Below, piece after piece: positions 6,178 through 11,806 of a DNA stretch of 64,000 bases. The stretch lies in contig JAKPMO010000026.1 of the NCBI GenBank assembly GCA_029548865.1, forward strand, positions 68,877 through 132,876. The letters run 5' to 3'. Every line of letters starts with the position of its first letter. Position 1 is the first letter of the stretch. The notes under the pieces were generated by a model. That model did not search any database, had not been told where the DNA came from, and was given only the letters and a program-made list of their open reading frames with translations. Made by a program: the position numbers and the translations under genes. The DNA is from Caldisericota bacterium. Lineage in GTDB: Bacteria > Caldisericota > Caldisericia > JAAYUI01.

Positions 6178-6714
6178 ATGAATAAAGTGCTGGCAGTGAC
6201 AGTTTTTGGGCTAACTTTTTGTTTTCTGGCCGGATGTGGTAGCAATACTATAAAAGGGTCATTTTTTGAAATGGAGATTCCAAAGGGGATGTATCAAGTT
6301 GAAATTCCCGATGGTTTTTCTTATCAGATTGTATTGATGCCGGACAGGGAGAAAATAGAAAGCATCAATGATATGACTGGAAAAACTGCTTTTTGCTCAT
6401 TTAAGTGGTTTAAAGGGGCATTTAAAAAAGGTGTTGTAAAGGGACTTGAAACGGGCACGCTTCCGCCTTATGCAGAAACTATTTTAAGCAGTGAGGCCAA
6501 GGCTGGGAACATGACTGTATTTACCGAGCAGATTAATCAAAAGGACCAAAGTGGCACCCAGGTGATCAGGTCCATTTTTAGAGCGGTGTTTCCTTTTGAT
6601 GGGTGGTGCTTGGAAATAATTGCTTCAGTGCAACCAGGATCATCGGTGGATCTTGAGGAAGTTAAAAAATTGATACAAAAAATTGAGTTTACAAATCCAT
6701 CTTTTGCTCCTTGA
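6178..6714 (+). CDS. Hypothetical lipoprotein (PsbP-like fold suspected)
   Basis: SD GAGGTG, signal peptide ending in lipobox LAGC. Confidence 0.7.
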   Translation: MNKVLAVTVFGLTFCFLAGCGSNTIKGSFFEMEIPKGMYQVEIPDGFSYQIVLMPDREKIESINDMTGKTAFCSFKWFKGAFKKGVVKGLETGTLPPYAETILSSEAKAGNMTVFTEQINQKDQSGTQVIRSIFRAVFPFDGWCLEIIASVQPGSSVDLEEVKKLIQKIEFTNPSFAP

Positions 6715-6745
6715 AACTTGTCCTTCAGAAGGGAGAATTATAGAT

Positions 6746-7198
6746 ATGAAAATAACCAAATTTGCCTTGGTGACTTTGTTGGCAGTTGCCCTTTGCGCTT
6801 GTGCGAGCGGTGTACTGGCAAAGGGCCCATTCTTCACGGTAGTTGTTCCTGAGCGTTTCCCGATAGAGAATTCCCCCCAAAGATTGGCGTTCCAGGGTCC
6901 GGAATGCAGGGTCCAGATAAAATGGTGGCCCGATGGAATGGCCTGGAGAGAATCTGTGGAAGCCAGTGAGATGGAAGGGGATGAAATCATTTCAACATGG
7001 CAAGAAACTGTTGATGGCAAAACAATGGAGTTCACCGATGCCAAAAATGGACAAAGAGAGAAAATTTATTTCAAACTTCAGATAGATGGTGGTTTCATAA
7101 TGGGTTTTGGGACTGTGATAACTTCCAAGGAACCAATACTCGAAGCTGCAAGATCGTTAAAGGTAACAAATGAAAAATACTTCCAGGAAAATAATTAG
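6746..7198 (+). CDS. Hypothetical exported protein or lipoprotein
   Basis: Start reassigned to ATG 6746 (MKITKFALVTLLAVALCAC); terminal motifs shared with its neighbours. Confidence 0.6.
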   Translation: MKITKFALVTLLAVALCACASGVLAKGPFFTVVVPERFPIENSPQRLAFQGPECRVQIKWWPDGMAWRESVEASEMEGDEIISTWQETVDGKTMEFTDAKNGQREKIYFKLQIDGGFIMGFGTVITSKEPILEAARSLKVTNEKYFQENN

Positions 7199-7799
7199 TT
7201 TTGCCATTACTTTTCTGGTAATAGCAATTTTGATAGTCGTTTTTTATTCCTGCAGGTCTTCCGGGGGAGGCCCAGGTCCTTCTTCAGCTTATATAGGACC
7301 TTTTTATACGCTCGAAACGGGCAAATCCTGGGAATCATTCAAATATTTCGGGGAACTTAGAAAAGAAACTGGAGCCTATAGCTATACGATATTCCACAAG
7401 GCCCCCATCAAGATTTCCAAATGGGATGATGAAGAGAATTACGAATATGCGTTTGTTTGTGCATCATACAACGATAACAATGTATCTCTTGGGGATTTTA
7501 GAAAGCTCATGGAACTTCCAGTATCCAATAACGTAAAACTTTTAAAGAAAGACAATATCATCCTTGGTAATCTCGATGCAAGATGGTATGAGTATGAAAT
7601 AACCGTGACATCCAGTAACAGCAAAGTCTTCAATTTGATTGTTGATCTACCAATCGACAAAGGCTACATAGAGATAAGAGCCTGGGCGCCGATGGGTGAT
7701 GAGGATGTAAAGGAAGAATTTAGAAAAATCGCTGAGACTCTTAGAGTTACCGACAAAGATTTTTTTGCTAAAAACAAACACATGGAAGGTGGCAAATGA
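7170..7799 (+). CDS. Hypothetical membrane-anchored protein (PsbP-like fold suspected)
   Basis: N-terminal hydrophobic helix ending FYSC, Gly/Pro linker; overlaps both neighbours. Confidence 0.65.
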   Translation: MKNTSRKIISFAITFLVIAILIVVFYSCRSSGGGPGPSSAYIGPFYTLETGKSWESFKYFGELRKETGAYSYTIFHKAPIKISKWDDEENYEYAFVCASYNDNNVSLGDFRKLMELPVSNNVKLLKKDNIILGNLDARWYEYEITVTSSNSKVFNLIVDLPIDKGYIEIRAWAPMGDEDVKEEFRKIAETLRVTDKDFFAKNKHMEGGK

Positions 7800-8788
7800 A
7801 GGTATTGACCCTATTCCCAGCCGAGAACGCAATTGAAGCCTCTGTTTTTGATGGCAAGAGCAAAATATCAAGCGCAAATTTTGCTTATCCGGAATGCTTA
7901 TGCGAAACTGGCTCGATTGCGGAAAAGATCGCCATACAAATGGGTGGTATGTCAACTGATATAGGAATTACTTGCTATTCCATGGCTCCTCAAGCATGTA
8001 ACAAAATCACGATATTGGACAATGAGCTTTCTTCAAAGATAGCCTGTGACACCTTTGGCCATGAGAAAACCAATATATGTCCACAGATACTTTTGTCGCT
8101 TGCCCCAAAAAAAGCCATGCTTGTATATCCGCTTACTTATGGTGAGTTACCGCCTGTTGCTGTGCTTTCTGGTATACCTCAAATCCAGCGTAGGATAGTT
8201 GCAAGAACATTTGAACACCTTCTTGGTGCAAAAGAGTTGTGCAAAATAACTGGTAAAGAATATGAACAATCCAATATTATCTCAATTTATTTGAGCAGTG
8301 ATGAGATATCTGCATGTGCCCATGAAAAGGGTGGAGTGCTAGATATTGAAGATTCCTACGATGGCGAAGGCGCTATGACGCTAACCAGATCAGGGTTTTT
8401 TGGTCAGAGATGTGTTTATAAAATGGCCTTTTCTGGCAAATATACCAAAGAGCAGATGCTTGAAAAGGTGAGAGGAAAATCGGGCATTCTAGGCCATCTT
8501 GGGACATCTGATCTGAATGAAGTCAGAAAAATGGTAAAATCTGGCAACAAGAAAGCAGAAGATGTTTACAAAGCTTTTGTCTATGGAGTAGCAAAATCAA
8601 TTGGAAAAATGGCTGCAAGCCTCAAAGGGAAAGTTGATGGCATTGGATTAATTGGATCACTGTCTACTGATGGGGAATTGGTTGCAGAGCTAAAGAATTA
8701 TGTTGGTTATATCAAAAATCCAGTCCCTCTTGGAATTGACCCTTCATCTGCACTCATGGAGATTGCTGTCACACACAAGGAAAACTGA
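7796..8788 (+). CDS. Divergent butyrate-kinase-like protein
   Basis: C-terminal half resembles Buk (GEGAMTLTRSG, FSGKYT, HLGTSD, LKGKVDGIGLIG); catalytic motifs are altered. Confidence 0.75.
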   Translation: MKVLTLFPAENAIEASVFDGKSKISSANFAYPECLCETGSIAEKIAIQMGGMSTDIGITCYSMAPQACNKITILDNELSSKIACDTFGHEKTNICPQILLSLAPKKAMLVYPLTYGELPPVAVLSGIPQIQRRIVARTFEHLLGAKELCKITGKEYEQSNIISIYLSSDEISACAHEKGGVLDIEDSYDGEGAMTLTRSGFFGQRCVYKMAFSGKYTKEQMLEKVRGKSGILGHLGTSDLNEVRKMVKSGNKKAEDVYKAFVYGVAKSIGKMAASLKGKVDGIGLIGSLSTDGELVAELKNYVGYIKNPVPLGIDPSSALMEIAVTHKEN

Positions 8789-8789
8789 T

Positions 8790-9494
8790 ATGGAAGCAAG
8801 AATATTTATTTTTGCCGGCACCACTGGTACCGGCAAGACAGAGGTTGCCATAAATTATGCTCTCTATCTCCACCAAAACGATGAAAAAGTTGCCCTTTTA
8901 GATTTTGATGTTGTCAAACCATACATACGAATCAGGGATAAAGCGGACATCTTGAGAAAGGCTGGACTTGAAGTCCTGATGCCGGAAGGATCAATTGCTT
9001 TTGCTGATATGCCAATAATTCCAACACACTTGTATGCGTGGGTGGCGGACAAATCCAGAAAACTCGTTGTAGATGTCGGTGGCGACAAGCAGGGTTCAAC
9101 AGCACTTGCGCAAGTGATGCCAAGGATCGAAACTAATGGATACGAGTTTATATTGGTAGTAAATCCTTTTAGACCATTTTCCAAAACTGTGGATCAGATA
9201 AAGACAATTGCGGGTGAGGTTGCTTTTGGAGCACGTGCTAAATTCACGCATATTGTTGCGAACCCACACCTTAAGGAAAAAAGTACAAGAAAAGACTTCC
9301 TTGAAGGCTTGGAAATAGTAAAGCAAGCCTCAAAAGAAATGGAACTTCCAATAAAATTTGTGGCCGTTTCACACGAATATCTGAAAGATGTTACTCAGGA
9401 TGATCTTCCAGCTCCAATGCTTCCATTGCAACTTTTTATAAAATATCCTTGGGAAGAGAAACCAAGAGTCAATTGGATATATAGAAGAGGTTAA
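8790..9494 (+). CDS. P-loop ATP-binding protein (MinD/ParA/CobQ-like)
   Basis: GTTGTGKTE Walker A, DFDVVKPY, DVGGD, VVNPFRPF; start ATG 8790 directly after the previous stop. Confidence 0.8.
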   Translation: MEARIFIFAGTTGTGKTEVAINYALYLHQNDEKVALLDFDVVKPYIRIRDKADILRKAGLEVLMPEGSIAFADMPIIPTHLYAWVADKSRKLVVDVGGDKQGSTALAQVMPRIETNGYEFILVVNPFRPFSKTVDQIKTIAGEVAFGARAKFTHIVANPHLKEKSTRKDFLEGLEIVKQASKEMELPIKFVAVSHEYLKDVTQDDLPAPMLPLQLFIKYPWEEKPRVNWIYRRG

Positions 9495-10852: not shown

Positions 10853-11118
10853 CAAGATTCAAAATGTGAAATTATTGTTGAATGTTGTCACGCCATCATT
10901 CAACATGGTGGATTTTGGACTTTTTTACGATATAATGATATATTACCGAAAAATAAGCGAAAATATAAAATCATTGTTTGTAAGAGGATACAGCATTTGC
11001 GTGATGATTTGTGAACCTAGTACAAAACTAGTGTAAATATCTCCAAAATGGACCATTGCATTTAAGATTGAATTGTGATTGAATACTAACATAAATTCAG
11101 GCGAAAGGAGCCAAACAT

Positions 11119-11652
11119 ATGAAAAAACTACTAGTTGTTTCAGTACTGTTTGCCTTAGCCTGTGGTTTGATGATGCCGGTGACCTATGGAACCAATGGTT
11201 CAACGGCTTTCAGACCATATGGCTGATGTCCTTCTGGAGGAGGCGGTGCGCCTCCACCACCACCCGCAGGTGCAACTACCGGTGGGTCAGCTGATACCGA
11301 TTTGGCATCGGATCCGACGCCAAAGAGCTGGTGCAGCAATGTTCTTGAGAATGACACAATCAGACTTCCATTTAACCTAATGGGCGAGTGCAAGGGCCAG
11401 GCCCCAGTCAATAACATCGAGATCTCGCTTGACGGCGGTTCAACATGGTTCAAGGCAAATCTGAACACCAAGACAAATGAGTGGTCCTATGAGCTCAACA
11501 CATCAATTCAGGGCTCAACCTACCAGCTTTTGACAAGGGCAACCGACAAAGCAGGCAGGACAGAACGCACAGTCAATCCAAATCTTGATGTCAGATATCG
11601 TAAGCGTCCGGTCACAATCAACATTGTTTCGCCAGGGACTGGAAGAGAGTAA
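11119..11652 (+). CDS. Secreted Ig-like-domain protein with an in-frame TGA at codon 36 (candidate selenoprotein, or a pseudogene)
   Basis: SD AAGGAG and ATG 11119, signal peptide MKKLLVVSVLFALACG, TGA 11224-11226. The same frame continues into the 11302..11652 ORF (EISLDGGSTW...RATDKAG Ig motif). Confidence 0.7.
11235..11259 (+). promoter_or_regulatory. SECIS-like hairpin
   Basis: GGAGGCG-GTG-CGCCTCC stem-loop plus an outer TGG/CCA pair; the loop begins after 19 intervening nt from the TGA. Confidence 0.4.
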
Positions 11653-11672
11653 CTCAAACCTAGTTTTTCCAC

Positions 11673-11704
11673 AAAAAAGACCAGCTTTTAAGCTGGTCTT
11701 TTTT
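11673..11704. terminator. Bidirectional intrinsic terminator
   Basis: A6-GACCAGCTT-TT-AAGCTGGTC-T6. Confidence 0.85.
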
Positions 11705-11750
11705 GTTTTTGGGCACAAATACGAATAGCTTTTATAATTCCTTTGAATAT

Positions 11751-11783
11751 AAAAAAGCTGGTTTTGAAAAAACCAGCTTTTTT
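11751..11783. terminator. Second bidirectional intrinsic terminator
   Basis: A6-GCTGGTTTT-GAA-AAAACCAGC-T6. Confidence 0.8.
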
Positions 11784-11806
11784 GTTATCTGATGGCTATT
11801 ATTAAA

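Follow-up and report, generated by a model that had tools for sequence, protein, structure and literature searches.

A probable exported selenoprotein family with an N-terminal selenocysteine/cysteine arm and a single Ig-like domain in Caldisericota

Known Selenoproteins and Related Arm Proteins

Bacterial genes of the SelB/bSECIS type, with fdhF from E. coli as the prototype, carry an in-frame UGA and an adjoining hairpin and are accompanied by selABCD (model as given in the accessible part of PMC13188914). The gene described here, which lies in a 64,000-nucleotide stretch of DNA from a Caldisericota bacterium (the window), agrees with this type in all these points, including a hairpin loop of 3–5 nt, a G as the first or second loop nucleotide and a spacing of 16–19 nt. 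It differs in that no homolog with Cys in place of selenocysteine (Sec, U) was found and in that no FdhA-type protein was seen in the host family (PF00384; 0/5 genomes).

Among small exported selenoproteins the closest is SaoC, the Cys-Cys-COOH (seleno)protein NF040734, which has an average length of 158 amino acids and a terminal adjacent Cys/Sec pair. According to the accessible text on SaoC (10.1101/2022.07.06.499078), however, the pair is C-U and located at the C-terminus, the signal is mostly that of a lipoprotein, most members are Cys forms, and the gene belongs to a nine-gene operon, whereas in the protein described here U-C or U-x5-C is near the mature N-terminus, the gene stands alone and there is no NCBIfam hit. 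The selenobacteriocins (TIGR04081; SGUG motif; accessible part of Table 1 in PMC13188914) likewise have Sec within a Gly-rich unstructured stretch (GUG in genus g2 of the present family), but their model gave no hit here, and the present protein combines a signal peptide of the Sec type with a folded Ig domain, no conserved maturase neighbor being seen.

The best structure and profile match, for approximately residues 80–160 (E 2e-6), is the C-terminal Ig domain of the sulfite oxidases (PF03404; SoxC 2xts, SorT 4pw3/5k3x, SorA 2blf). Unlike these enzymes, the protein has no molybdopterin catalytic domain, and the match covers only profile positions ~275–390 with 27 bits versus cut-offs of 420–600. 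It should also be noted that this likeness has a Z score under 8, comes from a low-confidence model and is tied with unrelated Ig folds, and that numerous surface proteins use the same type of domain as a stalk repeat. A chalcogen residue on a flexible Gly-rich arm of a folded body is also found in SoxY, which has a C-terminal GGCGG carrier arm, and in thioredoxin reductase, whose C-terminal Cys-Sec arm forms a vicinal Se-S couple. In both the arm is C-terminal, whereas here it is N-terminal and the order is U-C. Neither a sequence nor a fold match to SoxY was among the matches listed; the GGCGG arm is absent, the C-terminus of the protein being G-x-x-[R/N]-[E/D] without Cys.

The sequence-only reading from which this analysis started did not recognize the architecture among selenoprotein families. 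Indeed, it is absent from NCBIfam 20.0, where four orthologs gave no hit to a selenoprotein model and only a weak one to a sulfite-dehydrogenase C-domain besides chance hits, and by name, motif or model from the 119 families in the accessible part of Table 1 of PMC13188914, in the text of which Caldiseric, Omp28 and Ig-like do not occur. BSepDB (PMC13326102), which has at least 18 Caldisericia rows in the accessible part of its Table S1, is built from known families. In the literature outside subscription journals we found no description of the family and nothing relevant on the Caldisericum envelope, on digesters or on secreted Ig-like selenoproteins. That the gene represents a new selenoprotein family, with standard recoding, a new architecture and an inferred function, is well supported. 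New is the combination of a signal peptide, an N-terminal Sec/Cys arm, a poly-Pro tether and one Ig domain, of which the database copies are almost all truncated fragments. Because a Cys form is not detectable, searches by Sec/Cys alignment miss the family. It provides a small, testable case for why bacteria retain Sec and for the extracellular role of selenium in anaerobic digesters.

Gene Structure and Transcription

The features of the gene are collected in Table 1. As the sequence-only reading had it, a strong Shine-Dalgarno sequence (SD) and an ATG (11119) open a frame that after 35 codons reaches the TGA and then continues, with TGT (Cys) next, unbroken for 141 codons to TAA at 11650–11652.

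Table 1. Positions in the window of the gene and its features.
Feature	Position	Strand	Remarks
Shine-Dalgarno sequence AAAGGAG	11104–11110	+	From sequence; AAAGGA[G/A] ahead of ATG in 11/11 orthologs
Whole gene, TGA read as Sec (177 aa)	11119–11652	+	
Sec-pathway signal peptide, ~residues 1–24	11119–11190	+	MKK, hydrophobic core, small residues at −3/−1
In-frame TGA, inferred Sec36, motif [Y/F]-[G/A]-U	11224–11226	+	TGA in 11/11 family genomes
Partner Cys37	11227–11229	+	U-C (genera g1, g3) or U-x5-C (g2)
bSECIS-type hairpin	11235–11259	+	Core GGAGGCG-GTG-CGCCTCC at 11239–11255; loop 19 nt past TGA
Gly/Pro/Ser tether with invariant A-PPPPP	11230–11298	+	Overlaps SECIS; modeled as unstructured with low confidence
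Conserved block DLxxDPTPxxWxxNVLxxDT	11299–11358	+	5' of most possible internal starts
Single Ig-like beta-sandwich, motifs SxDGGxTW and RAxDxxxR	11356–11628	+	Type of Big-type stalks and the sulfite-oxidase C-terminal domain
Terminator-like hairpin GACCAGC-TTTTAA-GCTGGTC, then T6	11679–11704	+	By eye; RNA contigs end at 11623–11679

The 12-mer Kyte-Doolittle maximum of the signal peptide is 2.8–3.2 in all nine orthologs examined; its cleavage site was placed by eye. A lipoprotein was considered and rejected, there being no conserved lipobox Cys: Cys15 is confined to genus g1 and is missing in 6 of the 8 aligned sequences. The terminator that had been proposed behind the TAA is visible by eye as a hairpin, but the terminator scan listed none. 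At 11748–11790 the window has another terminator-like inverted repeat (AAAAAGCTGGTTTT..AAAACCAGCTTTTTT), whose sequence is related to that of this hairpin and which probably serves the convergent gene. Comparison with Rfam gave 29 matches, nearly all on terminators and all under the gathering score, for which reason a non-coding RNA was dropped as an explanation.

In 4/4 metatranscriptomes, which come from four studies, a single contig spans the gene, from 11093–11110 to 11623–11679, across an unchanged TGA. Contig depth is 48–663 on the gene versus 0–5 alongside, which is a hint of high expression and no more, since the runs were chosen for containing the gene and expression is poorly measured by contig depth. 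The runs with a stated habitat are from sludge or digesters.

Conservation of the In-Frame TGA

TGA is found at the identical site in all 11 genomes of the source's family, which are distributed over three genera, here called g1, g2 and g3 (identity 46–99%; 46–94% among the 8 aligned sequences). Two of the 11 orthologs end prematurely at contig ends. In the remaining 82 of the 93 genomes of the phylum the gene was not found (11/61 in a first pass, all from the source's family). Every ortholog has an MKK-type signal peptide, then [Y/F][G/A], then TGA, and of the tail ahead of the TGA only this [Y/F][G/A] is conserved. Directly behind it, seven orthologs (g1 and g3) continue as U-C-P and four (g2) as U-G-[G/S]-G-G-G-C. 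Since U-C in two genera is U-x5-C in the third, it is not the adjacent pair that is invariant but the Cys partner; the vicinal Sec-Cys pair of the sequence-only reading is therefore right for 7/11 orthologs and not for the other 4/11.

The ratios of synonymous to non-synonymous codon changes 3' of the TGA within the genus are 13/0, 8/1 and 29/6, and third codon positions dominate the changes in 8/8 pairs. As judged from these alignments, purifying selection acts on the codons downstream of the TGA. The frame is preserved in every ortholog, all indels being multiples of three. Possible internal starts vary by genome between codons +7 and +52 past the TGA, are mostly without SD, and none is common to all orthologs. 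In the source genome they are TTG at +26 and ATG at +52, neither with a GGAG-type SD in the 16 nt upstream, which bears out the earlier statement that the downstream half lacks an SD of its own. Conservation includes the stretch that separates the TGA from the first possible start. For example, A-PPPPP sits upstream of nearly every possible internal start, and in one genome (G006) the first possible start comes 43 codons after the TGA, past most of the invariant DLxxDPTPxxWxxNVL block. A sequencing error, against which the raw reads at 11224–11226 were to be checked, is contradicted by the TGA in 11/11 family genomes and by the RNA, where none of the 4 runs has another letter listed at these positions. 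In one genome (L350:1-460; G005:C111) a contig begins with three tandem copies of the 3' end of the ortholog together with the terminator, which would be a local duplication or a misassembly.

The SECIS-Type Hairpin

The hairpin GGAGGCG-GTG-CGCCTCC, with its loop 19 nt after the TGA, is as described before and has a minimum free energy (MFE) of −19.9 kcal/mol. Stability was nevertheless discarded as evidence for Sec: relative to shuffled sequences the z score is −0.94, with 36/200 shuffles equally stable, 52–91% of synonymous recodings fold as stably or better, and a loose SECIS filter lets through 490 TGAs across the source genome. The earlier caveat that Gly and Pro codons create complementarity by themselves is thus right with respect to stability, since recodings fold equally well, but loop position and sequence still carry signal, and this signal is the geometry.

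The geometry was assessed with our own implementation of bSECIS criteria (loop 3–9 nt, G within the first two positions, spacing 16–37 nt, MFE <= −7.5), the consensus model being taken from the accessible part of PMC13188914. Hairpins agreeing with the model, their loops 17–19 nt past the TGA, are present in 7 of the 8 orthologs tested, versus 0.1–18.6% of 2000 synonymous recodings of each; one ortholog fails. The loop, which begins 16–19 nt after the UGA, is GUG in g1, GGC in g3, and GUU or CGUGU in g2. The stems are built from different codons and residues in each genus and are not in register across genera.

Selenocysteine Machinery and Genetic Code

The sel genes, of which the window itself has none, were looked for in the source genome (1.8 Mb, 93% complete), and selA, selB, selC and selD are all there: selB has tRNA-Sec directly behind it, and selD has an in-frame TGA of its own. 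SelD (G000:C18:18657-19688, + strand, locus L008) contains the sequence CAGUASK, with the loop GUC 17 nt after the TGA and an ATG without evident SD; it is itself a selenoprotein. Whereas selB, selC and selD were established for the source genome, the relatives were scored for selA alone, which is over the cut-off in exactly the 11 of 93 genomes carrying the gene; two more genomes have sub-cut-off matches. The 11 genomes are kin and form one clade, so that this co-occurrence has to be counted as one event and not as eleven. Two 698-aa GTPase frames (G000:C5 near 1812 and C16 near 117582), which match the selB model weakly and with similar scores, are probably EF-G copies.

TGA is the commonest stop in the source genome, closing 414 of 957 long ORFs, in keeping with the earlier remark that it normally is a stop here, and the sole tRNA with a TCA anticodon is tRNA-Sec. 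The genetic code is therefore standard, and a variant code was ruled out on these grounds.

Other Apparent Selenoproteins of the Lineage

As a genome-wide control, the source genome was compared with the complete genome G010 of genus g2. They contain 3130 and 4337 TGAs, respectively, that are preceded by a start, and 282 pairs of these occupy homologous positions. A SECIS-like hairpin accompanies both members in 2 of the pairs, which belong to the gene under study and to that of an exported Omp28-like protein. The two-genome filter has false negatives, as it overlooked SelD; a further scan retrieved all three genes in both genomes (8/23 and 8/16 of the matches listed).

The Omp28-like protein (G000:C16:188160-190493, − strand, locus L330) is unannotated and 777 aa long. 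It has a signal peptide, an N-terminal domain with U-T-K-C (UxxC), Big_5 and BACON-type Ig stalks and a Cu-amine-oxidase N-terminal domain. At its Sec site all 11 family genomes have TGA, versus Cys (TGT/TGC) in 11/11 other loci covered, 10 of them from other, selA-lacking families and 1 a paralog; 2 more are without coverage of the site. Hairpins agreeing with the SECIS model are found in 9/11 TGA forms versus 0/11 Cys forms. Since the homologs elsewhere have Cys and the loop geometry is the same, TGA stands for a Cys-like residue in the source's family. With 14.7 bits for the G010 ortholog against NF045500 (Omp28_seleno; cut-off 200), the protein is possibly a new subfamily. The copy in G004 also has a TAG within the match.

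Judging from two genomes and a few searches in the family, the apparent selenoproteome of the host lineage consists of SelD and two exported proteins, without formate dehydrogenase, and thus of very few apparent Sec users. Matches to MvhD/FlpD and to thioredoxin in five genomes have no TGA inside. An AhpC match with a TGA (G006:C1:1469299-1469430, L349) was rejected as a Sec site, since it is a degraded peroxiredoxin gene with several breaks.

The Ig-Like Domain and Its Relatives

The Ig-like domain of the sequence-only reading is real, though weakly scored. Pfam gave Big_13 (E 6.7e-5) and Mo-co_dimer for the window protein, both under cut-off, and the predicted models are weak (mean pLDDT 51.5 and 58.1), with a beta-sandwich at approximately residues 80–170 and an arm without structure. 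The top fold match (Z 7.7, rmsd 2.5 over 80 residues), which is tied with other Ig folds, is to the C-terminal Ig domain of the sulfite-oxidase family; an HMA or MerP fold was not among the matches. Within the genus, the domain is most closely related to the stalk repeats of a 691-aa surface protein (L031:850-2925 in G003; ortholog at the start of G000:C28). This protein has an N-terminal CLCH...H, a Temptin_C-like hit, Big_7 stalks and a Cu-amine-oxidase N-terminal domain, and is possibly a variant of a surface c-type cytochrome.

A profile search of 1.84 billion representatives yielded 549 hits, the best 150 of which are family fragments, P0092 and Ig repeats of large proteins. P0092 (JGI/IMG, 86 aa) is a distant relative with 36% identity that has the C-terminal RKKP motif of the family but is missing its N-terminal region; it comes from none of the 93 genomes searched. 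A full-length Cys form was found neither among these best 150 hits nor in the 93 phylum genomes, so that the usual Sec/Cys criterion lends no support in this case. In a word-indexed protein search ("near" length band) one of 177 candidates was a hit, again a fragment of the same family. Among the matches listed from genome and metagenome scans, 2 are family members and the rest distant Ig domains; of 155 hit frames in 154 distant loci, 59 are bounded upstream by TGA, and none has by eye a signal peptide with a U/C arm.

The databases contain mostly the truncated downstream half as proteins of 90–140 aa. That homologs might have Trp, Gly or Arg at this position, without a conserved TGA or hairpin, had been named as an argument against the selenoprotein reading: TGA and a SECIS-type hairpin are kept in three genera, but one full-length database protein, P0157, does have W36. 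Its six contigs are short (<=1340 b) and it is otherwise identical to the read-through protein, which fits a gene call with translation table 4; W36 is probably such a call rather than a TGG allele.

Proposed Function and Alternative Explanations

From its conservation and from the machinery present, we consider it very likely that the in-frame TGA encodes Sec, and that the product is an exported Sec-containing protein is hardly less probable. Among the functional readings we favor, at somewhat below an even chance, an extracytoplasmic swinging Se/S redox arm. SelB, bound to the in-frame hairpin, would bring Sec-tRNA to UGA36. After cleavage of the signal peptide Sec would be located about 5–12 residues from the mature N-terminus, with Cys adjoining it or sitting six residues on, and the Gly/poly-Pro tether would join this arm to the one Ig-like domain, which would be a stalk or docking module and not the catalyst. 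The arm could cycle between selenol/thiol and selenenyl-sulfide and in doing so take up oxidants or sulfane sulfur; alternatively, it could act as a reductant of envelope proteins. Its recharging could proceed via a CcdA/thioredoxin route, CcdA being present in 5/5 genomes tested, possibly through the Omp28-like UxxC protein as the proposed partner. A wider proposal, which as a whole we regard as rather unlikely, is that the family keeps its Sec apparatus for a two-protein extracytoplasmic selenium redox relay rather than for any metabolic enzyme. The carrier, small, strongly transcribed and without a Cys form, would present a tethered Sec/Cys arm as an N-terminal equivalent of the swinging arm in SoxY or TrxR and would be recharged by the surface-anchored Omp28-like UxxC oxidoreductase, and the SECIS within its coding sequence would in part have shaped the Gly-then-Pro tether.

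That the TGA is not read as Sec at all could be explained in three ways. It could be a true stop, ending a short secreted peptide that is followed by a separately initiated Ig-domain protein; TGA being the commonest stop (414/957) and the 90–140 aa database entries would agree with this, but the conserved residues between the TGA and the first start, starts that differ and mostly lack an SD, the intact frame with indels in multiples of three in all orthologs, and the lack of conservation in the upstream tail beyond [Y/F][G/A] make it extremely unlikely. Equally unlikely, in our view, is that near-cognate suppression or a variant code places Trp, Cys or Gly at the TGA. W36 of P0157 speaks for it, but this protein is otherwise identical and lies on short contigs, which fits a table-4 call; moreover, tRNA-Sec is the only tRNA with a TCA anticodon, 414/957 ORFs end in TGA, and the SECIS geometry is shared with the Omp28-like protein, for which the homologs carry Cys. 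For a recent pseudogene or an assembly error only the stop itself can be adduced; with TGA in three genera, purifying selection and variant-free RNA contigs, this explanation is practically out of the question.

If Sec is read through, as we think, the arm could still serve other purposes. It might be a chelator or shuttle that, instead of undergoing redox cycles, uses Se and S to bind extracytoplasmic soft metals (Hg, Cu, Cd, Ag, As). The variable Se/S spacing (U-C or U-x5-C) suits chelation by a flexible arm, the habitat of the RNA runs, where one is given, is sludge or a digester, and Haft and Gwadz tie exported CU motifs (SaoC, SaoB) to heavy-metal interaction in the accessible text of their paper (10.1101/2022.07.06.499078). 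Genes for metal transporters, MerR-type regulators or efflux are, however, not conserved neighbors, an ArsR-like gene (label by eye) being upstream in genus g2 only, and an HMA or MerP fold is not seen, which leaves chelation doubtful. Distinctly unlikely is an abundant structural subunit of the envelope whose arm forms cross-links to neighbors (Se-S/Se-Se), with the Omp28-like UxxC oxidoreductase introducing or remodeling these links. In favor are the Ig-like fold, which is common to adhesin and S-layer stalks, the conserved extensions that flank the Ig core on both sides, the stand-alone unit with its strong SD, and the RNA depth of 48–663 versus 0–5 beside the gene, itself only a hint in runs chosen for the gene; but there is no anchor domain, and an intramolecular Cys partner is always there. 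Sec insertion is usually inefficient and limited by selenium, so that a bulk envelope subunit fits poorly. Finally, the protein could be a selenium store, scavenger or sensor, made in full length only when selenium is available and otherwise as a signal peptide with a tail of 4–11 residues. Sec on an unstructured arm, few other apparent Sec users in the clade and a readily assembled RNA would be compatible with this, but a protein with a single Sec in 177 residues stores little selenium, and the invariant Cys partner and the conserved folded domain point to chemistry; we therefore regard it as very unlikely.

Genomic Neighborhood

The gene is monocistronic-like and stands alone. On its upstream side g1 and g3 have deoB; on the downstream side a Zn-ribbon/DUF2007 gene is present in g1 and in one genome each of g3 and g2. 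No conserved redox, transport or maturase neighbor was seen at the orthologous loci. Further upstream in the window (6178–9494, + strand) there are three small exported or lipoprotein-like genes without a Pfam match above cut-off. An acetate/butyrate-kinase-like gene and a P-loop NTPase come next, and genomes of g1 and g3 share this gene order.
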